From NCBI GenBank assembly GCA_964617145.1, contig CAZTVN010000003.1:1-41506 (forward strand): DNA of 41,506 nt, given 5' to 3'. Source of the stretch: an uncultured Candidatus Peribacteria bacterium (GTDB taxonomy: Bacteria; Patescibacteriota; Gracilibacteria; UBA1369; JACRIC01). The notes below the pieces were generated by a model. That model did not search any database and was not told the origin of the DNA. It worked only from the letters and a program-made list of their open reading frames with translations. The position numbers and the translations under genes were made by a program. Positions 1-41,506 of this stretch are shown piece by piece (within the stretch, counting starts at the first letter, position 1; each line of letters begins with the position of its first letter).

Positions 1-52
1 GCTCGAAATGGTAAAATTTCGTTACAACGTTATGTTTTTCAGCACCTCCTTT
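1..52. repeat. Right half of a family-1 hairpin repeat (GTTTTTCAG-CACCTCCTT end), truncated by the window start
   Basis: Nt 32-51 atgtttttcagcacctcctt is the exact reverse complement of 41453-41472. Nt 4-17 cgaaatggtaaaat is the exact reverse complement of 41486-41499. It resembles the right arms at 1006-1023, 6126-6143 and 14471-14485. Confidence 0.7.
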
Positions 53-133
53 ATTCTAACAAAAATTTCAAAAACTTCTAGGAATTTACCAATTTTTTAA
101 AATTTTTTCATTTTTTTCTGCTAAAGCAAGAGC

Positions 134-951: not shown

Positions 952-1025
952 AAGGATGTACTGAAAAATTTGCAGCCGAAATTTGTAATTTTTAGTAGGA
1001 AGATAGTTTTTCAGACCCTCCCTAA
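952..1025 (-). repeat. Short family-1 hairpin repeat (about 74 nt)
   Basis: aaggatgtaCTGAAAAAtttgcagccgaaatttgtaa...gataGTTTTTCAGaccctccct. The reverse complement aligns with 6075-6118 and 41462-41506 (shared AAAAACTATCTT.CTACT..AATT.CAAATTTCGGCT). Confidence 0.65.
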
Positions 1026-2168: not shown

Positions 2169-4259
2169 TCAAGATGCCAAATAACCCTGAATAGCCGCGG
2201 CAACTTTTGAATATATATCTCGCAATTTAGCTTCATCATCTTCAAAATTGCAAACTCTGAAACCCAACAGTTTTCCTCTAAATCCACTCAAAGGACTGGC
2301 AACAATTCCGGTTGTGGCCATAAGATAAATCAAAAATCTTTCGTCCAATGGCTGATTACCATTTGAAGTTTCTCTTTCAACAAACGTGAGAAGACCATCA
2401 TTTTTGATTGGTAAAGATTGATGTTCATTCAAAACTCCTTCATCAAAAACAACGGTAGTGTACATAGCTCCATCCGGCATAATACATGAAACTCCATCAA
2501 TACCGTCGAAACATTCGGTAATCACTCTTGCACTGTTAAATAATCTCCTATTGAAACCTTCAAGAAAGCTTGGATATTCCGGATGTTGATATATATGAGG
2601 CAAAATTCTTTGAATGGATGTAGCCCCGACGCCTTCCTGCATGAGATTGAAATATGCCATTTTTATCTTTCGAAGCTGTGGATCTTCGTCAAAACCGTAA
2701 AATTCAGCACAACCGATCTTATCCCCGCATTTAAAAGCATCCTTCGAACCTGATCTATAACAAACACACGGTACATTCCTTCTGGAAGCAACAACTCCTA
2801 CAGAAACAAATCTTTTGCCTGGGGCAACGATCTGCCAATAAGTTTCATCGGATTCAATAATTAAGTTATATTTTCCGGCGAACTCACAAAGTCGACCTAA
2901 ATCCTCTTCCGACCAAATATGTCCGGTCGGATTAGACGGATTTACGATGGAAATCGTGCGAATCTTACCTTTGGAAGCCTTAATCTGCTCCTCCATATCT
3001 TCAAAATCGGGTTTCCAAACTCGTGCCTCCTTATCGAGACGCATATCACTACCGATTAATGTGGCGTTAGGATCAAACATTTTAGCAAAGGCTAACTCGA
3101 TGTCCGTTTGAACAGGATAACTTGGTAACACGTGTAAGATTCTGCCTGTGCGAGCAGTCGCCATTCTGAAATTGGATATGGCATGCGCGGCGCCATTCGT
3201 AGGGATAACATCACTTTTCTTTAAAACATTCACAACTCCGCAGGCTTGAGCTCTTTTTTCTGCTTCTTGTACATAATAATCCACAAATTCGTCCACCCCG
3301 CTTGTCGGAGGATACGAAGACATCTTATGATCAAAAAGCGCTAACAATTCATTCTCAGACACCACTTTTCCATCTCTAACTTTATCGGCTAATCCAAATC
3401 GTATTGCCAATTCAGTGAGAATAATAAAAGGAGGTTGTTGAACCAGATCCGGAACATTCCCAATATTTTGATAACTCAATTTAAGCTGTATGCCCTCAAG
3501 CTTACAAACTTTTTCCATCTCTGCCGCGATACCACCAATTCTCCGTAAGGCGTAATCAATATCAACCACGGATTGAGCGGCAACCGGATTATAGAAACCA
3601 CCATTTTTTAAACAAGTAACTTTCAATCGACGATCCATTTTTTTTTCTTCTCGTGCCTCCCCTTCTTGTCCATCCTCGGTTCCATTTCCAATTGCAGCAA
3701 CTTCAATAAAACCCCCTTCAATATACTTCATAAGGACCGTCAAAACCGAAGCGGGATAAGGAGGCGCCAAAATGATCGGGGCACTTTCCCTAGTCATCTT
3801 CCGAAGTCTTTCAAAAAAGCCTTCTTCTATCTCCTGCCGGTTCATCAAATCGCCACCCAATGTGCCCCTGCTTCTCCGCCTTTCATCACTATAGCAACTT
3901 TCCCCATTACTCGATGCGCGATCTAAACGTTGCAATCGTAAATCCGGATGCAGACCCACTTGAATATCTTTCAATTCAAAATCTTTCATACCCCCAACCT
4001 GACTGAAAAAATCTTGGTACAATCGACGGCGCTCCTCTCTTTCAGCAGTTGCCCCGATCCAACCCAATACATCTTCGACCAAAAGACCTTCGCTTGTCGG
4101 CGATTCAATAACAGAGTATGGCAACTGGGGATCACAGAGTCCTTCATCGAATGCTGCTACGCGCCCTCCGTCGTTTGCCAGGGACAAGGAAGTCTCATCA
4201 CCCCCTCCCGCACTCCCATCAACAAATTGTTCAGAGGGACTCATATATAGTGGCGACAA
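2169..4259 (-). CDS. PLP-dependent aminotransferase, alanine-aminotransferase (AlaA/ALT)-like, with an N-terminal extension of about 210 aa
   Basis: 696 aa. Motifs: YQNIGNVP (compare LNIGNP), IVNPSNPTGH, and SGSKDAFKCGDKIG (the PLP-lysine SxSK block of the ALT subgroup). The first 210 aa are acidic and low-complexity, with no aminotransferase similarity I can see. Confidence 0.75.
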   Translation of the reverse strand: MSPLYMSPSEQFVDGSAGGGDETSLSLANDGGRVAAFDEGLCDPQLPYSVIESPTSEGLLVEDVLGWIGATAEREERRRLYQDFFSQVGGMKDFELKDIQVGLHPDLRLQRLDRASSNGESCYSDERRRSRGTLGGDLMNRQEIEEGFFERLRKMTRESAPIILAPPYPASVLTVLMKYIEGGFIEVAAIGNGTEDGQEGEAREEKKMDRRLKVTCLKNGGFYNPVAAQSVVDIDYALRRIGGIAAEMEKVCKLEGIQLKLSYQNIGNVPDLVQQPPFIILTELAIRFGLADKVRDGKVVSENELLALFDHKMSSYPPTSGVDEFVDYYVQEAEKRAQACGVVNVLKKSDVIPTNGAAHAISNFRMATARTGRILHVLPSYPVQTDIELAFAKMFDPNATLIGSDMRLDKEARVWKPDFEDMEEQIKASKGKIRTISIVNPSNPTGHIWSEEDLGRLCEFAGKYNLIIESDETYWQIVAPGKRFVSVGVVASRRNVPCVCYRSGSKDAFKCGDKIGCAEFYGFDEDPQLRKIKMAYFNLMQEGVGATSIQRILPHIYQHPEYPSFLEGFNRRLFNSARVITECFDGIDGVSCIMPDGAMYTTVVFDEGVLNEHQSLPIKNDGLLTFVERETSNGNQPLDERFLIYLMATTGIVASPLSGFRGKLLGFRVCNFEDDEAKLRDIYSKVAAAIQGYLAS

Positions 4260-6062: not shown

Positions 6063-6143
6063 AAAGAGGCTTAAGAAAAACTATCTTACTACTTAATAAT
6101 TGCAAATTTCGGCTAAGCAACGTAAGTTTTTCAGATCCTCCTT
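6063..6143 (+). repeat. Short family-1 repeat abutting the folC-like start codon
   Basis: aaagaggcttaaGAAAAACtatcttactacttaataattgcaaatttcggct...GTTTTTCAGatcctcctt, immediately followed by the ATG at 6144. Confidence 0.6.
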
Positions 6144-7448: not shown

Positions 7449-7538
7449 AATCTTTTCTTTTCTTTTAACTTTTCTCTTTTACTTTCAGGTTTATTTTCGT
7501 TTAAATAAGATAAGAATTATTTTTTAACATTAATTTCT

Positions 7539-7748: not shown

Positions 7749-7767
7749 ACAATTTTGCATAATAGGA

Positions 7768-7846
7768 GAGGGCGTCGGCATACACATTTTTTGCGCTTCA
7801 AGGAATAAAGACGCTTAAAAAATGGTATGCCGCCGCCCTCTTTTTT
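7768..7846. terminator. Long rod hairpin, bidirectional terminator between the small ORF and ligA
   Basis: gagggcgtcggcatac (7768-7783) pairs with gtatgccgccgccctc (7825-7840) with 1 mismatch. Inner catttttt/aaaaaatg also pair. A T6 run follows at 7841-7846. Confidence 0.7.
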
Positions 7847-14320: not shown

Positions 14321-14485
14321 GGACACTCTGAAAAAAACCCTTTCGACTGCAATTGCAAGCGTTCGGCTAAAAAATGGCTCATGCCTTCTTGCCGTATCTT
14401 TCTCTGATACGCCTTCGTCGGCCTTCGCCATTTTCGCCAGAACGCTTGCAATTTCGTAACCGAAATGGCATTTTTCAGAGTGTCC
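14321..14485 (+). repeat. Long family-1 rod hairpin (165 nt) between convergent genes
   Basis: ggacactctgaaaaa (14321-14335) pairs with tttttcagagtgtcc (14471-14485), 15 bp perfect. aattgcaagcgttc (14351-14364) pairs with gaacgcttgcaatt (14440-14453), 14 bp perfect. The left arm aligns with 41462-41506 (ctgaaaaa..actgcaatt..ttcggct). Confidence 0.75.
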
Positions 14486-15632: not shown

Positions 15633-15679
15633 ATCTCAAAATTATACCTTATTTTAGACCAAAAATCAATTTAAGAATG

Positions 15680-15699
15680 GGCTGAAAAACTATTCAGCC
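15680..15699. terminator. Short hairpin downstream of mnmA carrying the CTGAAAAAC motif
   Basis: ggctgaa (15680-15686) pairs with ttcagcc (15693-15699). The sequence gggCTGAAAAACTATtcagcc resembles a family-1 arm start. Confidence 0.4.
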
Positions 15700-15794
15700 A
15701 CTACAATTTTCACATTTTGGCTTAAATTTGTTCAGGACAGATCAACGTATCTTTATCTGGGGAATAAGAGCTAGCAGCATTTTTTAGAGTTTGC

Positions 15795-21185: not shown

Positions 21186-21346
21186 AGTGGGCAAGGGAAT
21201 TTTTTCTCCTCAAAGGCTCCGCATTGACCGTACCAAAGGTCTCACTCCTTCTGATTTTACGATATAATCCGCAAAATCAGATAGTCATTCGACCTGTACG
21301 GTAACCCAATGCTTTGCCATTTGTCGAAAAAATTCCCTTGCCCACT
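21186..21346 (+). repeat. Rod hairpin element sharing a conserved core with 36523-36737 (candidate structured RNA or MITE relative)
   Basis: 21-bp perfect stem: agtgggcaagggaattttttc (21186-21206) pairs with gaaaaaattcccttgcccact (21326-21346). Core blocks ctccgcattgaccgt (21217-21231) and atcagatagtcattcg (21276-21291) are shared with the 36.5-kb copy. Confidence 0.75.
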
Positions 21347-24386: not shown

Positions 24387-24546
24387 TTAGATAGCGGCAG
24401 ATTGCTTTTTCCTGAACGCTTTCGTCTACTATTAAATAAAAATTTTTTTTACTTATCCGAAAGCTCGATTCTCGCGAAGCATCAACCTTTTCTCATTCTC
24501 TTGCTTCGCTCGAAACGTCAGTCAAAAGCAATCTGCCGCTATCTAA
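24387..24546 (+). repeat. Long rod hairpin element (160 nt), divergent family-1 member
   Basis: 23-bp perfect stem: ttagatagcggcagattgctttt (24387-24409) pairs with aaaagcaatctgccgctatctaa (24524-24546). Inner pairs are gcgaagca (24474-24481)/tgcttcgc (24502-24509) and ctgaacgctttcg/cgaaacgtcag. The internal ctttcgtctactattaaat resembles other family members. Confidence 0.7.
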
Positions 24547-29976: not shown

Positions 29977-31884
29977 TTATTTTTTACTTTTTGTCAAGGC
30001 TTTGTAGTATGATGCTCTTTCTCTATAGCTTGATGCCTCTTTTGGATAGACGACGGCGAGCAATTCGTAGAGATTTGTCGCCGCCTCCCTGTTTGGTGTT
30101 TGTACGGTATAGTGAATATTGTTTTTGAGTTGAAATTCGTACTTTTCCAGAAGATCGAGCGTCATGCCTTTTATCTTGTCTATTTCATCTTCAGAGCCGA
30201 TTTTTCTCGCCATATCAATGAAATTCCAATAATACCAAAAGTGATTCATGGGATTTAAGTTTAACGCCTTCTTAAAACTCGAAAAAGCGTCCCTATATTT
30301 TCCCTGACTTCTTTGGATTTCCCCGAGTCTTTCCCAGCCTTCGGAATCGATAGGATTTAAGATTAAATGTTTTTCCAGCGCTATTTTTGCGAGATCGATA
30401 TTTCCTTCAGCCAAAAAAGTCTGAAAACGTTTCATAAAATGTTCTCGAGGGAAGAGCGTTTTTTCATAATATTCGAAATACATTTCTCCTTTTTGAAAAT
30501 CGTTCGCGCTTTCAGATTGATAGGCTTTTTTCTCAAATTGAGTGAGTTGCATCTCAAAAATGCCGTTTACGATCAAAATGCCAGCAATCAATAAGGCGAC
30601 GTAGGATCGTTTTTCCCCTTGAAGATGTTGAAAACTTATCATACTTCGCACAGAGGCGAGCAAAATAAAAAACAGAAGAATATTTACGATGAAATTCAAA
30701 TTGTAATCGATTTGATTATGGAGAATGGCTCCCAAAAGTGAGCTTGAGATAATCAGCGCTTCGTATTCATTAAAATTTTCAAGAAATCGGATTCTCTTTA
30801 TCATCGTTCTGGCCAATATGATGAAAAATCCTAACAAAAATATGGCTGCGATGAGTCCTTCTTCTGAAGCTATTTTCAGCAAGATATTGTGAGCGTGATC
30901 GGATGTTCCGAGAAATGTTGTCTGTACATGCGGATAGGCAAATCGGAAACTATAAGGACCGTAGCCGAAAAACGGCTTTTCAAGAGTGAGAGTGATCGCA
31001 CCTTTCCAAAATTCTATGCGTTCTCGTATGGATGTTATATTTTCTTGATGCTGAAAAGTAATTTTTTCTTCAAAAGTGGTTATATCGTGTGTTTGTCCTC
31101 TTATCAGGTTCGATCCTTGAATTATTAAAAATGTGAGCACGGTAATGAGTGCCACTTGTGTGAAAAATCTTTTTTTCCACCTGTAAGGGCGGATGGTGAA
31201 AAACAAAAAAAGACTTTGCAATATGAAAACCAACCATCCTCCTCTTGAATAGGTGAGATAGAGAGCGCTTATTATGAAGGCGGTAGCTAGTGGTGCGAGG
31301 GTTTTTAATTTTCCCTTCAGAAGAGCTAGTGACAAAGGCCAAACCATAATCAAAAACAGCGCTGCGCCATTTGGCCAAAGTTCCCCTGAGTTTTCTAAGT
31401 TTATAAATGTTGCGAAAAAGCGAGGAGAGGGATGAGTAAAATAAAAATAATATCCGATTCCTACGGCAATAATGGAAATGGACAGTATGCCAGGAAGCAA
31501 CCATGATCTGTAAAAAGAGGTATGAGCCAATGAAAGATAGATCGTAATAGATGAGGCGAATACCAGGATTTCAGAAAATCCGTAATTTTTTGTTTGTGAT
31601 AAAAAAAAGGCTGTTATAAGACTTAAGAGAAATCCTAAAAGGAAAATTTTTTCCTTTTTTGATTCTTCTCGTTTCATCCGAAATGCTACCAGCGCTAGAG
31701 GCAATGTACTAAACGCGAGTAAGAGTACGGGGAATAAGTCCTCGCCTTCATCATATTTTTTTGAGTGAAAAAGGAAAAGAAAGTATGCAAAAAGGGAAAT
31801 TAAAAGAATCGGTGGAATTTGTGTGAAATTTTCTCGGATAGTTAGGGCCTGTGCACACAAAGTTTTTACAGATGGAAGAGACAT
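29977..31884 (-). CDS. O-antigen ligase/polymerase (Wzy_C)-like membrane protein with C-terminal TPR repeats
   Basis: 635 aa, more than 10 TM helices. YSRGGW loop block and C-terminal TPR-like repeats (GWERLGEIQRSQGKYRDAFSSFKKALNLNP). The first 14 codons lie inside the 31843-32117 element. Confidence 0.75.
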   Translation of the reverse strand: MSLPSVKTLCAQALTIRENFTQIPPILLISLFAYFLFLFHSKKYDEGEDLFPVLLLAFSTLPLALVAFRMKREESKKEKIFLLGFLLSLITAFFLSQTKNYGFSEILVFASSITIYLSLAHTSFYRSWLLPGILSISIIAVGIGYYFYFTHPSPRFFATFINLENSGELWPNGAALFLIMVWPLSLALLKGKLKTLAPLATAFIISALYLTYSRGGWLVFILQSLFLFFTIRPYRWKKRFFTQVALITVLTFLIIQGSNLIRGQTHDITTFEEKITFQHQENITSIRERIEFWKGAITLTLEKPFFGYGPYSFRFAYPHVQTTFLGTSDHAHNILLKIASEEGLIAAIFLLGFFIILARTMIKRIRFLENFNEYEALIISSSLLGAILHNQIDYNLNFIVNILLFFILLASVRSMISFQHLQGEKRSYVALLIAGILIVNGIFEMQLTQFEKKAYQSESANDFQKGEMYFEYYEKTLFPREHFMKRFQTFLAEGNIDLAKIALEKHLILNPIDSEGWERLGEIQRSQGKYRDAFSSFKKALNLNPMNHFWYYWNFIDMARKIGSEDEIDKIKGMTLDLLEKYEFQLKNNIHYTVQTPNREAATNLYELLAVVYPKEASSYRERASYYKALTKSKK

Positions 31885-32117
31885 ATTTTGTTCAGTTCAA
31901 GAAACGACGACGAAGGTGTGCCCAAAGGCACATCGAGGAGGAGTAACGCAGAAATGGGCAAAATATGTCTCTTCCCTTCGGGTTGAACAGGAACCTGTCA
32001 GGTCTTCTTTGTTGCTCGTCGCTTGTGGAGCGCAATGGCGAAACAGCGCTCCTCGCGCCGCGAATCCGACAACGTTCCTGTTCAACCATCGCAAAAACTT
32101 TGTGTGCACAGGCCCTA
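31843..32117. repeat. 275-bp element bounded by 25-bp perfect inverted repeats (family-2 box) enclosing a GC-richer multi-hairpin core
   Basis: tagggcctgtgcacacaaagttttt (31843-31867) pairs with aaaaactttgtgtgcacaggcccta (32093-32117). Internal perfect stems: 31874-31890/31959-31975 (17 bp), 31981-31994/32074-32087 (14 bp), 32027-32033/32046-32052 (7 bp). Confidence 0.8.
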
Positions 32118-33015: not shown

Positions 33016-34488
33016 TTACATTCTTATTGAAATACCATTCTTTCTTAAAAATTTCTTTACCTTGGCTATCGTGACCTCTTGAAAATGCAACATGCTCGCC
33101 AAAAGTACGCTGTCTGCTTTCCCCTTTTCAAATGCTTCCAGAAGATGCTGCAATGTTCCAGCTCCTCCTGAGGCGATCACTGGAATGTTTACCGATGTAC
33201 TTACTTTTTCTATTAATTTTAGATCATACCCTTGCTTTATACCATCTCTGTCCATAGAAGTTAAAAGGATCTCTCCTGCTCCTAATTTCTCCACTTTTTT
33301 TGCCCAATCTATCGCGTCAAGCTCGGTCTCCTCACTTCCACCTTTTATAAACACTTTATAATTTTTTCCAACTTTTTTCGCATCGATAGCCACCACTATG
33401 CACTGCGATCCAAAATTTTTGGCTCCTTCCTTAATGAGCTTTGGATTTAATATCGCAGCGGTATTTATCGTTATCTTATCAGCTCCACATTTCAGTATTC
33501 GTCTCATTTCTTCTACGCTTTTTATACCTCCTCCCACCGTAAAAGGAATCGATACTTTCTTTGCTACTTTTTCGACCATACGATAGATGGTGTCACGATT
33601 TTCCTTACTCGCGGTTATGTCGAGAAAAACAAGTTCGTCTGCACCCTTTTTTGAATATTTTTCACCCAACTTGCCAGGATCACCGGCGTCTTTTAAGTTG
33701 AGGAAACGCTTCCCTTTCACTACTCTGCCATCTTTTACGTCGAGACAAGGTATAATTCGTTTTGTTAGGGCGCTATTTTTGAGCGCTTCGCACAGGAGAA
33801 TTTTCCCTTCATAAAGAGCTTTTCCAATAATTGCTCCTTCAATGTTTAATTTTTTTAATATTTGCAAGCTTCTCAAGTTCGATATTCCTCCTGATGCGAT
33901 CACTTTTAATCCGAGATTTTTTAACTGCGAAATCATCTCAAAGTTTGGTGATGTTAATGTCCCATCTCTTGAGATGTCTGTGGCGATAATTTCACTGATT
34001 CCTATTTTTTTCAGATTTTTAGCGAATTTTCTATATTCGAGAGCGGTATTTTTTTGCCAACCATTCGTTACCACATTGCCATTTTCGATATCGATGGCGA
34101 CTATAATCGATTTTGCTCCGTAAAAATTTACTAAGTTTTGTAGAAATTTCTGATCAGACGCCGCGACAGTCCCTATCACGATTCGCTCAATGCCGGAATC
34201 GAGATAGAAACGCGCATCTTTCTCCTGCCGTATTCCTCCACCAACTTGCAGAGGAATTTTCACTTTTTTCCTCATTTTCGCTATCAAATTTTGATTTACA
34301 GGATATCCAGCCTTAGCACCATCAAGATCAATAACATGCAACATCGGAGCTCCTTGCTTTGCAAATTTTTCAGCCACAAAAATCGGATTTTCGTTGTATA
34401 CTTTTTTTTCTTCAAAATCACCTCGTAACAGGCGCACGCATTTGCCGCCCATGATGTCAATTGCAGGAATTATCAACATAAAGTACAA
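33016..34488 (-). CDS. hisAF: HisA-HisF fusion protein (ProFAR isomerase fused to the imidazole glycerol phosphate synthase cyclase subunit)
   Basis: 490 aa. The N-terminal half has [15 protein letters not shown] and [11 protein letters not shown] (HisA). The C-terminal half has [16 protein letters not shown] and [10 protein letters not shown] (HisF). The true start is probably the ATG at 34479 (MLIIPAIDI). Confidence 0.85.
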
Positions 34489-35114
34489 AAATTACGTAAT
34501 ATTTTCATACCTTGCTCGCCTGATTTTTCGGGATGAAATTGTGTGCCGAAAAAATTTTTATACTGAAGCACTACGGGGAATCTGATCTCATAATCTGCTT
34601 CGGCAATAATATTTTGCTGTAGCGCATCGAAATAATATGAATGCACAAAATAAAAATATGCATCGTCTTTGATGCCTTTTGTGAGCTTGGAGGTTTTTTT
34701 TAATGATACTCGATTCCAGCCCATGTGCGGAATTTTTAATCCTTTTTGCTGCGGCAATTTTCTCACTCGACCTTTCATAATTTTGAGACATTCCACATTA
34801 CCTTCATAAGAAAATTCGGCCAAAATCTGCATTCCAAGACAAATACCAAGAAACGGGACATTGAGTTTTTGAATGAAATTTTTGATTTTTTGTAGGTGTT
34901 CCATCGCTTGAGAAGCCGCACCAACACCTGGGAGGATATATCCGTCGTATTTGGGAAGAGTCTGAAAAACGTGCTTACTCCTGCAATTTTCTGACAAAAC
35001 CATATTTTCCCGAGGCTCTTTATCAAACTTTTCGAATGACACTCCAATTTTGGAAAGAGCATTTTCAATACTTTTTATATTTCCCGCACCGTAGTCAATT
35101 ATAGCGATTTTCAT
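34473..35114 (-). CDS. hisH: Imidazole glycerol phosphate synthase glutaminase subunit
   Basis: 213 aa. [10 protein letters not shown], nucleophile block FLGICLGMQ, and FVHSYY. Confidence 0.85.
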
Positions 35115-36467: not shown

Positions 36468-36522
36468 GTATTAAAACGCTATCATGTTATCATGTAATAA
36501 TTTCATGTCAAGTTAAAAATTG

Positions 36523-36737
36523 GTAACTGCTCACAATGGTAAAAAGTGGGCGGGGCGTTTCCCTTTCGTCCTGCCTCCGCATTGACCGTCCATCCGCTCA
36601 TTTCTTCTGATAACGCGATTGGCAGACGCGTTATCAGATAGTCACTCGCGGGGACGGTTCCCAATTGCTCGGCAATGTCCTTAAGGGAAACGCCCCGCCC
36701 ACTTTTTTACCCCCGTTGATTCCTTGTGAGCAGTTAC
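36523..36737 (+). mobile_element. MITE-like 215-bp hairpin element with 14-bp TIRs and an 8-bp target-site-duplication-like direct repeat
   Basis: TIRs: gtaactgctcacaa (36523-36536) and ttgtgagcagttac (36724-36737). The direct repeat aaaaattg flanks it on both sides (36515-36522 and 36738-36745). Inner 23-bp perfect stem: 36541-36563 pairs with 36685-36707. The core is shared with 21186-21346. Confidence 0.7.
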
Positions 36738-36753
36738 AAAAATTGCATAAAAA

Positions 36754-37568: not shown

Positions 37569-38369
37569 ATGGCTGCAAAATCAAATAAAGCTCTTATCTC
37601 AGGTATTGTTGGAAGTGCCGTTTTAATTTCTGCTTCACTTGTTTTCGTTGGAGTTGTTATGCTCAACGGGGTAAAAGTGAAAAGTTTTGAGAATGGTTTG
37701 TTTGCTCAAGAACTCAAAGCAGCGATTGAAACTCTCAATAATGAAGATCCTCAAGCAAAGACTCAAAATGATCAAGATCAAGTCGTGAGGACAATTCCTT
37801 CAGACAGTGTCATGCCAGTTTCTGCGAAAGATGATCATATTTTGGGTGAATCCGATTCTCCTATTTCAGTTATTGAATATTCTGATTTTGAATGTCCTTG
37901 GTGTAAAAAATTTCATCAAGATGGCACTCCGAAGAAAATAGTTGACGCATACAAAGGCAAAGTAAATTTTGTTTATCGACATTTTGTAGCTGTAACTGGT
38001 CATAATCCATTAGCAACTCAAGAAGCACAAGCCAGTGAATGTGCTTCAGCACTTGGAGGAAATGATGCTTTCTGGAAATACCATGATGCACTTTTTGCTC
38101 GTACCACTTCAAATGGCAATGGCTTAAAATTAGAAGATTTAAGCACGATTGCCACTGAGACAGGTCTGAATACATCATCTTTTGATACATGTTTTCAAAG
38201 TGAAAAATATGCTTCAATCGTTGAAGAGGATATGAAAAGCGGAGCGAAAGTAGGAGTAGGGGGAACTCCTGGAACCGTTGTTATCAACAATGAAACTGGT
38301 GAGGCTTATCTTGTAAAAGGTGCTCAACCTTTTGAAACTTTCAAAGATGTTGTAGAACAATTGCTTTAA
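37569..38369 (+). CDS. DsbA-like thioredoxin-fold thiol:disulfide oxidoreductase, membrane anchored
   Basis: 266 aa. N-terminal TM segment and active site SDFECPWCKKFH. Confidence 0.8.
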   Translation: MAAKSNKALISGIVGSAVLISASLVFVGVVMLNGVKVKSFENGLFAQELKAAIETLNNEDPQAKTQNDQDQVVRTIPSDSVMPVSAKDDHILGESDSPISVIEYSDFECPWCKKFHQDGTPKKIVDAYKGKVNFVYRHFVAVTGHNPLATQEAQASECASALGGNDAFWKYHDALFARTTSNGNGLKLEDLSTIATETGLNTSSFDTCFQSEKYASIVEEDMKSGAKVGVGGTPGTVVINNETGEAYLVKGAQPFETFKDVVEQLL

Positions 38370-38382
38370 GCATATTAAGTCT

Positions 38383-38925
38383 ATGAAATATTCCAAGCAC
38401 GAACTCAAAAAACTTGAAAAGCAGGTTGGATCGAAAGAAGAACTCAATAGATTGTTACGAAATCAGGCTTTGAAATCTTCTTTTGGTATTGGAATAAGCA
38501 TTATTGTTTCTATTGGACTTGTTGCCCTTATTATCTACGCAATATTGAGTCGCTCTTCTTATAAACCGTATTCTTCGGGTCCTGTCCACTGGCATACGAA
38601 GTTAGCCTATAATCTTTGCGGTGATCGAACTTTTTTGCCTGAAGCTGTGGAGGGTCACGGATGGCTTGTTCATGGCCATATGGATAATGAGATACACATC
38701 GAAGGCACTATAGGCAGTGAAGATGATATTCGTTTGAAACGATATTTTGAGAATTTCCAGATTCCTTTTGGACCCGATCGCATCGGACCGTATAAAAATG
38801 GTGATGTATGTCCTTCAACCGGAGTTCCCGGAAAATTGAAAGTTCTCATTAATGGAAAAGAAGAAGCTGATTTTTTCAATCATGTGATGAAAGATGGAGA
38901 TAAAGCAGAAATTATTTTTGAGTAA
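38383..38925 (+). CDS. Membrane-anchored His-rich hypothetical protein
   Basis: 180 aa. One TM segment. His clusters VHWH and EGHGWLVHGHMDNEIHIEG. Confidence 0.5.
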   Translation: MKYSKHELKKLEKQVGSKEELNRLLRNQALKSSFGIGISIIVSIGLVALIIYAILSRSSYKPYSSGPVHWHTKLAYNLCGDRTFLPEAVEGHGWLVHGHMDNEIHIEGTIGSEDDIRLKRYFENFQIPFGPDRIGPYKNGDVCPSTGVPGKLKVLINGKEEADFFNHVMKDGDKAEIIFE

Positions 38926-38950
38926 AAATATACGAGTTATACAATTCTTG

Positions 38951-39155
38951 AGTACGTAAAATTACGGTACAGGTGTCGAAGTATTCTTAGAAAAACACGA
39001 GAATAGTTTGGCTCAAAACCCGATTCGTCGCTTAAAAAATGCAAAACCGGAATTTTGCATTTTTTAAGGAGTGACTCATCGCATTTTGACAGCCAAACAA
39101 TCTCTATAGTTTTTCTTAAGAATCTTCCACACCTGTGCCGTAAAAACCCTGTACT
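38951..39155 (+). repeat. Long rod hairpin element (205 nt), divergent family-1 member
   Basis: The 35-nt arms 38962-38996 and 39109-39143 pair with 2 mismatches and 2 single-nt indels, and end in GAAAAAC / GTTTTTC. The central 16-bp perfect hairpin is 39031-39046/39053-39068. gtttggct/agccaaac also pair. Confidence 0.7.
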
Positions 39156-39214
39156 TACCATCGTGAAACTCTAAAATTGGCTTTTTAAAAGGTTTTTTTC
39201 GTGTTACAATTGCA

Positions 39215-39574
39215 TTGATGAAAACTTTCAAACATGTTTTATACACATTTTTGCCTACTACGCTTTCTTTGCTGATTTTTTCGGGCTTTTTTTTGCATTC
39301 TTTTCATGTGCTGCCACCTTTAACCAGTGAGCTTAAGCTTCTCAACACCCAAAATGTTTGTTGTACGCAGTGTCCACAGGAAAATGAATGTGTATCCGAC
39401 TCAAAAAGTCATCAGATTGATATTCTGAATGTACCGTTTCAGCATGATATTGATTTTAAGCCTTATTCGTCAAGGTCAGACATAAAAACGACTTTTGAAG
39501 TTCCTGAACGTTCTTTACTTACATTATTTGCTTTTAAGACGCCATTTTATCTCTCTGAAATACAGAGAGAATGA
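39215..39574 (+). CDS. Small Cys-containing membrane protein, hypothetical
   Basis: 119 aa (the ATG at 39218 is the likelier start). One TM segment and a CCTQCPQENEC motif. Confidence 0.45.
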   Translation: MMKTFKHVLYTFLPTTLSLLIFSGFFLHSFHVLPPLTSELKLLNTQNVCCTQCPQENECVSDSKSHQIDILNVPFQHDIDFKPYSSRSDIKTTFEVPERSLLTLFAFKTPFYLSEIQRE

Positions 39575-39676
39575 TTGTTTCGTAAGCTTTCGATTTTTCA
39601 CTGTACCTATCGCTTAAGCGAAAATTTCAGTGAATTTTAATCGTTGATTTTTAGTGTATTTTTTCATTTTATGTTT

Positions 39677-40186
39677 ATGAAACCATCTCGAATTGTCCTT
39701 TTCTCTCTTCTTCTCATTTCTGCTTTTGTCTTGCTTGCTGGGTGCAATAGCAATACTGATGCCTCTAAAGCACTTTCACTCAAAGATAAACAAAGTAATG
39801 GTTTTGTCACTATTTCCCAAAATAATCTTGACCTTGGGGACATCCCTATTTTTGGAGGCAAAGTGACAACAAAGTTTAGTTTTCGAAATGATGGTGATGA
39901 AGCGCTTGTTATTCTTGATGGAGTGTCAAGTTGTATGTGTACCGAAGCTCAGATCAAAGCATCTGTTCTTTCCCCTAAGATTGTTATGCCAGGGCATGGA
40001 GGATCTATTTCTCCTATTGATGAAGTTTTTGAACCAGGTGAAGAAGCTGAGCTTATAGCGACTTTTGATCCTCTTGCTCATGGGCCCAATGCTCTCGGTC
40101 CGATAATGCGAGATATTACACTTCGTACGACTTCTTCCAAAACTCCTCAAGTTAAATTTGTTTTTCAAGGTAATGTTACTCAATAA
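39677..40186 (+). CDS. DUF1573 domain lipoprotein
   Basis: The ORF track starts at 39644, but the ATG at 39677 gives MKPSRIVLFSLLLISAFVLLAGC (lipobox). DUF1573-like FSFRNDGDEALVI and the SSCMCT motif. Confidence 0.7.
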   Translation: MKPSRIVLFSLLLISAFVLLAGCNSNTDASKALSLKDKQSNGFVTISQNNLDLGDIPIFGGKVTTKFSFRNDGDEALVILDGVSSCMCTEAQIKASVLSPKIVMPGHGGSISPIDEVFEPGEEAELIATFDPLAHGPNALGPIMRDITLRTTSSKTPQVKFVFQGNVTQ

Positions 40187-40189
40187 TTT

Positions 40190-40657
40190 ATGATTTCTTT
40201 TGTTCGAAAATATTTTGGATGGTTGGTCAGTCTTTTGCTTATTTTTCTTGCTAGTATCTCAATTTTTGTTCGTTTCGAAATGAGTATTCAAACTCAACAC
40301 ACCGAACTGAATACAAGCTCTATTTCTTTGATAGATTCTACTTCATTTGATTTTGGTGTTATTCCTCGTGATCGCAAAGTCGAACATATTTTTTCTCTTC
40401 AGAATCCGGATTCTACTCCGTTAGAAATTAAAAAAATTGTTACTTCTTGTGGTTGCACTACGGCAGAACCTTTTATTGATGAGAAAAAACAAACTATGCC
40501 TTTTACGCTTGCTTCTGGTTCTACTTCTCAAATTCGCGTTATTTTTGACCCTCTAGCCCATGATTCACGCGGCGATACTTATAGAGCTGTACGCATAGAA
40601 ACCAACCATCCTCAAAATCCTTTTATAGTTATCAATCTTCACGCTTATGTCCAATGA
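40190..40657 (+). CDS. DUF1573 domain protein, membrane anchored
   Basis: 155 aa. TM anchor. FSLQNPDSTPLEIKKIVTSCGCTT is the canonical DUF1573 CGC block. Confidence 0.7.
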   Translation: MISFVRKYFGWLVSLLLIFLASISIFVRFEMSIQTQHTELNTSSISLIDSTSFDFGVIPRDRKVEHIFSLQNPDSTPLEIKKIVTSCGCTTAEPFIDEKKQTMPFTLASGSTSQIRVIFDPLAHDSRGDTYRAVRIETNHPQNPFIVINLHAYVQ

Positions 40658-41291
40658 AATTACTTTTTCTGTCGTTACGATAAATGGCCTTATCGACTCT
40701 ATTAATCCTTGCGCTATTGGAGTTTTGATAGCAACGGTTGCGATCCTTTTTGCACTAGGAAATTATCGGCAACAGATTCTCCGATTTGGGTTCTTTTATA
40801 TTCTCTCTACTTATGTTACTTACCTTTTGATAGGACTTGGCATTTTAAAGGCAATACATCTTTTTGGCGTCCATAATTTCTTTGGCTGGCTTTCTGCTGT
40901 CGTCCTTATTCTTATGGGTTTGTGGCAACTTTTTCGTTCTGCCTGCATCGTACCAAAGCATATGCCGAAAGAGGCTACTATTCTGTCCGGCGTTTTTTTG
41001 GGATTTCTTGTAGGACTCTGTGAATTTCCTTGCTCTGGAGGTATCTATCTTGCGACTGTTGGCTTTATTGGCCTTCGCGAAACCTTTTTCTCAGGGCTTC
41101 TTTTGCTCATGTGGTACAACTTCATGTTCGTCTTGCCGATCCTTGCTCTTTTTCTTATTGCCTACAATCTTTCCGCAGCTAAAATGATCTCCGAATTAGT
41201 CGGAAAATTTGGTGCTCGTGCTCGATACTTTAGCGCTGCTGCTATGATCATCATAGGGATTCTTCTCTTGAGTTGGCTTATTTTTCGTTAG
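40647..41291 (+). CDS. CcdA/DsbD-family transmembrane thiol-disulfide electron transporter
   Basis: 214 aa, about 6 TM helices. Membrane-embedded Cys motifs SINPCAIG and EFPCSGG. Overlaps the upstream gene by 11 nt. Confidence 0.65.
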   Translation: MSNEITFSVVTINGLIDSINPCAIGVLIATVAILFALGNYRQQILRFGFFYILSTYVTYLLIGLGILKAIHLFGVHNFFGWLSAVVLILMGLWQLFRSACIVPKHMPKEATILSGVFLGFLVGLCEFPCSGGIYLATVGFIGLRETFFSGLLLLMWYNFMFVLPILALFLIAYNLSAAKMISELVGKFGARARYFSAAAMIIIGILLLSWLIFR

Positions 41292-41337
41292 AATTTCAGT
41301 AGAAAGTTGGTTTTCCAAAGGATCTTAGACTATTGTT

Positions 41338-41371
41338 AAGAGGCCTCGCGAATAAATTCGCGAGGCCTCTT
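41338..41371 (+). terminator. Perfect 15-bp stem hairpin downstream of the CcdA-like gene
   Basis: aagaggcctcgcgaa, loop taaa, ttcgcgaggcctctt. There is no clean T-tract afterwards. Confidence 0.55.
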
Positions 41372-41440
41372 ATACTAAATCCTTACTGCCGGAGACTTGC
41401 TCTTACTTATATCTCCACCTGCTCAATACGAATTTTGAGT

Positions 41441-41506
41441 TGAGGAGGGTCTAAGGAGGTGCTGAAAAACATACCATCTACTGCAATTTTACCATTTCGG
41501 CTGCAA
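41441..41506. repeat. Left half of a family-1 hairpin repeat (AAGGAGGTG-CTGAAAAAC end), truncated by the window end
   Basis: gaggagggtctAAGGAGGTGCTGAAAAACataccatctactgcaattttaccatttcggctgcaa. It aligns with 14328-14372 and with the reverse complements of 952-1025 and 1-52. Confidence 0.7.

Follow-up and report, generated by a model that had tools for sequence, protein, structure and literature searches.

Gene content and chromosomal setting

The window, by which we mean the whole stretch of 41,506 nt analysed here, is an entire contig, as shown by the record for its ccdA-like protein, in which the longest contig measures 41506. The open reading frames include DnaX, an NAD-dependent ligase (ligA), a Mur-type ligase, MnmA, RelA/SpoT, YchF and AroD, as well as an ECF sigma factor, a sortase, an SLH protein, an ABC transporter and a histidine operon; one tRNA is also present. 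An earlier note on this DNA had described the content as housekeeping without a replication initiator. Inspection of the ORFs confirms this: replication initiator, partition, recombinase, transposase, protelomerase and phage proteins were all sought among the window ORFs and none was found.

The last gene has its closest named homologues, at 77-80 % identity, in 'Candidatus Gracilibacteria' genome bins. Gracilibacteria are known for recoding of TGA, and the nearest named relatives carry that label. If TGA is read as a sense codon (genetic code 25), the reading frame at 2169-4259 (-) gains about 900 nt and runs across the glycosyltransferase gene next to it. TGA appears to terminate this frame and seems to be a genuine stop; code 25 was rejected and the standard code was kept.

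The right part of the window (37569-41291) carries a cluster of a DsbA-like gene, two DUF1573 genes and a CcdA-like gene. In relatives, the ccdA-like cluster lies within large chromosomal contigs of up to 889 kb, where it is accompanied by a CsoR-type repressor and then by a copper P-type ATPase, an ArsP permease or other genes. The comF-like gene that opens the window was never found downstream of the cluster in these relatives. Such variable neighbours, with no comF-like gene downstream, argue weakly against a circular arrangement of the window. A copper ATPase or ArsP-type gene may lie just beyond the right contig end, although synteny with relatives cannot settle which genes neighbour the contig. 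At 41337-41372 and 41248-41375 lie a perfect 17-bp palindrome (TAAGAGGCCTCGCGAAT/ATTCGCGAGGCCTCTTA), which resembles a terminator stem and is found 45 nt past the last gene, and an Rfam His_leader match that overlaps it. This match scores 36.5 bits against a gathering threshold of 49 (E = 0.022) and is probably due to chance.

Complementarity of the two contig ends

The earlier note reported that the two ends of the window are complementary over exact blocks of 20 and 14 nt. The complementarity is real and somewhat longer: 41453-41473 is the exact reverse complement of 31-51 (21 nt, including the 41453-41472 and 32-51 pair reported before) and 41485-41499 is that of 4-18 (15 nt, including 41486-41499 and 4-17). 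The two blocks are separated by a mismatched bubble of 11/12 nt, in which the left strand (CCATCTACTGC) and the right strand (TCGTTACAACGT) remain unpaired. Among 3000 pairs of 60-mers taken from the window as a random control, the longest exact reverse-complement match was 12 nt, compared to the 21 nt observed. When the termini are joined, the resulting 110 nt fold as DNA with -38 kcal/mol (z = -13.1), which none of 200 shuffled sequences equalled. The terminal 55-mers as a whole are complementary at only 36/55 positions. A comparison of both ends revealed no direct k-mer overlap between them. We use H for the hairpin repeat to which both ends belong; its arms and the related copies inside the window are listed in Table 1.

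Table 1. Arms of H at the contig ends and copies of the H family within the window
Feature	Position	Strand	Description
H, 5' arm (first 55 nt of H)	41452..41506	+	Proposed k-nt assembler overhang at the right contig end; consists of T, outer stem AAGGAGGTGCTGAAAAACATA, left bubble CCATCTACTGC, inner stem AATTTTACCATTTCG and GCTGCAA
H, 3' arm (last 55 nt, same-orientation copy)	1..55	+	Proposed k-nt overhang at the left contig end; consists of GCT, inner stem CGAAATGGTAAAATT, right bubble TCGTTACAACGT, outer stem TATGTTTTTCAGCACCTCCTT and TATT
Copy with truncated 3' arm	961..1024	-	TAGGGAGGGTCTGAAAAAC...TTTCGGCTGCAA/ATTTTTCAG; intergenic, TA at both flanks
Degenerate copy, internal deletion in 3' arm	6070..6143	+	Between dnaX and a Mur-ligase-like gene
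Full-length diverged copy, 165 nt	14321..14485	+	Between convergent genes; -80.8 kcal/mol
5'-arm-only copy	15670..15726	+	TAAGAATGGGCTGAAAAAC...CACTACAATTTTCACATTTTGGCT; intergenic

A family of intergenic hairpins

Alignment of the copies reveals a common terminus TAAGGAGGnnCTGAAAAAC, a bubble of which the left strand ends with (C)TAC-TGC and the right strand begins with TCGT(T)AC, and an inner stem AATT...TTCG that is followed by GGCT. Outer stems vary between copies and are complementary within each complete copy; the earlier note, too, had remarked on substantial differences among family members. The copy at 14321-14485 possesses the same type of outer stem, asymmetric bubble (left ...ACTGC-AATT, right AATT-TCGT(T)AC...) and inner stem as H, the latter ending with TTCGGCT, but carries about 66 nt of additional apical hairpin. 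The architectural match between the joined ends and this intact copy, proposed earlier, thus holds for the arms but not for the element as a whole. In view of these extra nucleotides, the joined termini need not represent a complete element.

The asymmetry of the bubble is conserved in the family, which gives the element an orientation. From this asymmetry the right end of the window can be identified as a 5' arm and the left end as a 3' arm, both belonging to units of the same orientation. This bears on the possibility that the window is a 41.4-kb segment bounded by terminal inverted repeats of roughly 54 bp, invertible or mobile as a unit in the manner of a composite element. The first and last 54 nt or so are indeed largely reverse-complementary. 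However, the bubble places same-orientation copies at the two ends, the apex-proximal ends of the arms face outwards, and the boundary would cut units that are complete elsewhere, as at 14321-14485. A true inverted repeat collapsed by the assembler would give ends complementary at 55/55 positions instead of 36/55, and the window holds neither a recombinase nor a transposase gene. The flanking elements are better described as direct repeats of a palindromic unit, and we consider a segment with terminal inverted repeats very unlikely.

The geometry of the ends also resembles that of a linear replicon with covalently closed hairpin telomeres, in which the ends are the halves of a resolution site such as telRL of N15. 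In the N15-type linear plasmid prophages a palindrome is cut at its centre to give two ends, and their size is comparable to the ~41 kb of the window. Against this stand the missing protelomerase and phage genes among the window ORFs, the housekeeping content, and the fact that the supposed resolution site belongs to a repeat that is dispersed, with four further copies within the contig. Together with the fit of the break points to graph branching described below, this leaves a hairpin-telomere replicon with a practically negligible probability.

The H family itself is a real, non-coding, intergenic and palindromic repeat that behaves like miniature inverted-repeat transposable elements (MITEs) or REPINs and is a candidate member of either class. 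The copies are short (64-165 nt), non-coding and intergenic, with arms that pair over 21 + 15 nt, and they are dispersed over five loci in 41.5 kb, besides or including the termini. A parent transposase was looked for and no transposase domain is present in any window ORF; neither is there a RAYT gene within the window. The copies at 961-1024 and 6070-6143 are bordered by the dinucleotide TA on either side, and H has it at 41452-53 / 52-53; the copy at 14321-14485 lacks it. A target duplication and a conserved terminal TA look alike when empty sites are not at hand. Identical copies of H are suggested by the graph branching considered below.

No family members were found with nhmmer in about 150 kb of loci from relatives, using the joined element and the intact copy as queries, and on the sequences compared the hairpin family is lineage-specific. 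A degenerate family pattern matched viral contigs twice, neither match being a hairpin, and no RNA family in Rfam matches the hairpins, either at the gathering threshold or at E <= 1. A Logan look-up of the sortase gene, which lies between two family copies, returned no record. About 40 nt at 34948-34990 (+), in the coding sequence of the hisH-like gene (34473-35114, -), resemble the 5' arm of the family (GGGAAGAGTCTGAAAAACGTGCTTACTCCTGCAATTTT); this likeness could be due to chance or be a relic. The H hairpins are one uncharacterised repeat family, of an ordinary kind, in a Gracilibacteria-like genome from an understudied lineage, and not a new kind of system.

Other hairpins and repeats

A second hairpin family occurs at 21186-21346 and at 36541-36707 (outer stem 36520-36740), with lengths of 160-230 nt and folding energies of -79 and -118 kcal/mol. 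Its members share the inner motifs CCGCATTGACCGT, CTTCTGAT...ATCAGATAGTCA and ACGGT..CCAAT(T)GC, while the outer stems (AGTGGGC...GCCCACT) show compensatory differences. No Rfam match was obtained for this group, which may represent either a further repeat family or a structured RNA. Additional near-perfect intergenic rods are located at 7767-7841, 24387-24546, 31843-32117 and 38962-39143; these measure 89-291 nt and reach -145 kcal/mol. The density of rods is about 8 per 41.5 kb of window. Scans for long hairpins brought up no comparable rods in relatives, neither in about 87 kb of their loci nor in the roughly 150 kb searched for family members.

The 18-mer AGGGCCTGTGCACACAAA occurs three times in the window against 0.01 expected, at 867-884, 31844-31861 (+) and 32099-32116 (-). 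The latter two positions make up both outer arms of the rod at 31843-32117, and the lone copy at 867-884 lies directly past the stop codon of the comF-like gene and adjoins the H-family copy at 961-1024. A very high density of inverted repeats has been reported for the phylum Candidatus Gracilibacteria (bioRxiv 10.1101/2024.09.29.615628), and the hairpin-rich intergenic DNA of the window fits that report.

Break points at two k values

The default k values of metaSPAdes are 21, 33 and 55. Overlapping sequence at contig ends is a known trait of SPAdes assemblies (PMC5481147). Logan assemblies are made from k=31 graphs and are reported down to 150 bp (PMC12424806), so that a 110-nt edge for H would be missing from Logan on account of its length. 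In public Logan assemblies of four runs the organism is represented by short contigs, all of them exact matches to the window. Two of these contigs, both from SRR12113422, end near the termini: L002 maps to 39833-41481 and L005 to 26-990, with zero mismatches.

The positions of these ends can be compared with what different graphs should leave at a repeat. In a node-centric graph at k=31 a unique unitig retains k-1 = 30 bases of the adjoining repeat, whereas in an edge-centric graph at k=55 a contig retains k = 55 bases. Allowing for the 30 retained bases, the ends of L002 (41481) and L005 (26) place the start of the repeat at 41452 and its end at 55, boundaries that are also based on graph simulation. 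A repeat with these boundaries predicts ends at k=31 of 41452+29 = 41481 and 55-29 = 26, and at k=55 of 41452+54 = 41506 and 55-54 = 1; all four positions are those observed. The retained part of the repeat therefore equals k or k-1 in two assemblies with different k, as is characteristic of a de Bruijn repeat overhang.

For the simulations, synthetic X-H-body-H-Y sequences were constructed with the real body and with an H composed of 41452..41506, a middle of 0/5/12/50 random bases, and 1..55. Every such construct produced contig ends at 26/41481 for k=31 and at 1/41506 for k=55, regardless of the middle. A single-copy H caused no break, neither at k=31 nor at k=55. The larger k thus extends 25 nt deeper into the hairpin on both sides. 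A repeat vertex produces this pattern, whereas the reverse would be expected if coverage had set the ends.

The copy at 961-1024 behaves similarly. L005 stops at 990 and L004 restarts at 995, giving repeat boundaries of 961 and 1024 at k=31. The boundary derived in this way lies at an equivalent family position in two copies, with T-A-(A/G)GGAGG at 41452 and at 1024. The copy at 6070-6143, with TA at either flank, occurs only once at k=31, and L032 and L033 read through it.

Loss of coverage caused by the hairpins is another way in which the contig could have been broken, with reads from each side dying out within two near-identical hairpins because fragments that contain both arms would be poor templates for amplification or sequencing. 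Of the 20 Logan contig ends, about half are situated in hairpins, some of which are apparently unique: the end at 7775 lies in the 7767-7841 hairpin and that at 38982 in the 38962-39143 rod. For these two ends and for the one at 14366, the k-1 arithmetic misses any hairpin base. L001 reads through into Nextera adapter at the base of H (41457), and L003 has its end at this position too. Still, dying coverage does not account for ends that lie exactly k-1 = 30 and k = 55 nt from one pair of boundaries, or for the fact that on both sides the contigs made with the smaller k fall 25 nt short of the others. The complementarity of the ends would in any case call for two identical copies or a circle, and identical stretches of at least 55 nt branch anyway. 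Coverage loss is thus an unlikely cause of the ends, although hairpin-related loss probably adds to the fragmentation of the assemblies.

Some other Logan ends deserve mention. L034 and L035, which come from different runs, both end at 14366, inside the 165-nt copy; at k=31 this corresponds to a repeat start of 14337, which is within the arm and not at its base. Another genomic copy that shares only the inner part of the 14321-14485 element may be behind these ends. Nextera adapter is fused to genomic sequence in L001 (window 41457) and at the head of L034 (window ~7512-7524). The adapter read-through of L001 and the end of L003, from two samples, coincide at base 41457, 5 nt inside the hairpin. 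This coincidence suggests that tagmentation favours the site or that inserts are short at the base of the hairpin.

Origin of the contig ends

In view of the above, both contig ends are probably 55-base stubs left by a short-read assembler at the multi-copy hairpin repeat H, in other words an artefact. The following sequence of events would account for them. The window, a full contig, would stem from a Gracilibacteria-like candidate-phyla-radiation chromosome and have been produced by a de Bruijn assembler with a final k of 55. Its unique body of 41.4 kb (56-41451) would meet the dispersed repeat H at each side. H would occur with identical sequence in at least two contexts, the simplest arrangement being two same-orientation copies that flank the body; further copies elsewhere in the genome are equally possible. 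The graph would branch at the repeat and leave k bases of it on the contig: at the right end the initial 55 nt of H, at the left end its final 55 nt. The short edge of H itself (110 nt) would be too small to be reported. The window is accordingly most likely a chromosomal segment between copies of a multi-copy hairpin repeat.

Because H is nearly palindromic, stubs of equal length taken from its outer edges are complementary and appear as a hairpin when joined. For the same reason the apparent apex falls at the junction even if middle bases are missing. Relative to the base of the stem, the edges of the repeat are shifted by 1 nt (left) and 4 nt (right), and these offsets account for the observation in the earlier note that the apex falls within 1-3 nt of the junction. 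The split-hairpin geometry is therefore a by-product of a repeat, a palindrome and a fixed k, and makes no statement on physical linkage of the two ends.

Judged from sequence and graph behaviour, H would be at least about 110 nt long, with at least two identical same-orientation copies bordering the contig. Complementarity, family copies, break-point arithmetic and gene content are directly shown; that H has a second context, that the assembler worked with k = 55, that other identical copies exist and that H is mobile is inferred. The earlier note had assigned the two halves to the same or a near-identical element. This is sustained in the sense of at least two identical copies, but not in that of a single shared element. 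Because outer stems differ between copies of the family, the 21/21 match of the ends points to identical members of one subfamily. A length of exactly 110 nt, which applies if the middle is complete, equals 2k; this is a mild coincidence that counts against the explanation. Pairing of GCT with AGC at the junction and the presence of 'GGCTAAGC' in the copy at 6070-6143 hint that few middle bases are missing.

A second flank of H was sought by scanning public genome and metagenome contigs, collections that do not include this genome, for the exact 20-mer AAGGAGGTGCTGAAAAACAT, and none was found: the 12 matches were all chance occurrences in coding sequence (peptide KEVLKNI). A search of the protein database with H-derived peptides, aimed at spurious ORFs across other copies, gave zero candidates.

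Two other causes of branching were considered and rejected. Flip-flop inversion of the hairpin would end the k=31 contigs at 41473 and not at 41481. Collision of the two arms in a strand-merged graph is not expected, given that the shared exact blocks measure only 21 + 15 nt and that the single-copy control is unbroken. The suggestion that the assembly had broken at palindromes is essentially correct as regards the break but not as regards its cause, which is the multi-copy nature of the repeat; a single-copy hairpin stays unbroken.

The ends could also belong to one physical hairpin, either in a circle of about 41.5 kb or in a circle looped out between direct copies of H and coexisting with X-H-Y. 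Joining of the ends gives a well-formed hairpin, and a circle of body and H plus X-H-Y produces the same graph as X-H-body-H-Y. A pure circle with one H, on the other hand, has no branch and would not break at H, as found in the simulation control, and the direct k-overlap expected for the ends of a circular molecule is absent. The genes also point to a chromosome: dnaX, ligA, relA, mnmA, the his operon and the tRNA are essential chromosomal functions, no replication or partition functions accompany them, and the terminal gene cluster sits in large chromosomal contigs with different neighbours in relatives. A circular or circularly permuted molecule, one of the possibilities raised in the earlier note, thus conflicts with the missing overlap, the branch-point behaviour of the ends and the housekeeping genes. 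We regard one physical hairpin as highly improbable, and a circle that coexists with another H locus is unlikely given the essential single-copy genes.

A variant of the preferred repeat-stub explanation is that exactly two identical, same-orientation and recently active copies flank the body, and that recombination between them generates a looped-out circle or, by way of the symmetry of the palindrome itself, an inversion. The chance of this seems slight indeed. If true, it would make the hairpin family a driver of large-scale rearrangement in a streamlined genome of the candidate phyla radiation.

Comparison with known systems

The H family shares several properties with the Correia/NEMIS elements of Neisseria and similar bacterial MITEs, which are of the IS630/Tc1 type and have a TA target duplication. 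Both are non-coding intergenic repeats of 100-165 nt that form long hairpins, both comprise full-length and internally deleted variants, and both break short-read assemblies. In the H family, TA stands at the boundaries of 3-4/5 copies, where a target-site duplication is inseparable from a conserved terminal TA. The two differ in that there is no sequence similarity and no cognate transposase was seen in the window. Furthermore, the outer stems of the H family vary with compensatory changes, which is unusual for terminal repeats that are bound by a transposase.

REPINs are paired REP sequences that are mobilised by RAYT transposases. Like the H family, they are dispersed intergenic hairpins of about 100 nt with two imperfectly inverted halves and an unpaired asymmetric region. 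In addition, the complement of the bubble motif CTAC of the H family reads GTAG in 4/5 copies. Unlike in REPIN systems, no RAYT gene lies in the window, and REPINs were defined in proteobacteria, to which the host is only distantly related. The ERIC/IRU and RUP/BOX elements correspond to the H family in size class, imperfect palindromic structure and intergenic position, but are unrelated in sequence and host.

The contig ends themselves are best compared with the end overlap that SPAdes and metaSPAdes leave at unresolved repeats. As in those assemblies, exactly k (55) repeat bases would remain at each end of the contig, against k-1 = 30 in the independent k=31 assemblies used here. The difference is that the repeat in this genome is palindromic, as a result of which the overhangs mimic the halves of a hairpin instead of the direct overlap of a circular molecule. 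Caution is thus called for with k-base overhangs at palindromic repeats, which can mimic circularity, terminal inverted repeats or hairpin telomeres; a comparison of break points between assemblies made with different k exposes the artefact without the need for reads.
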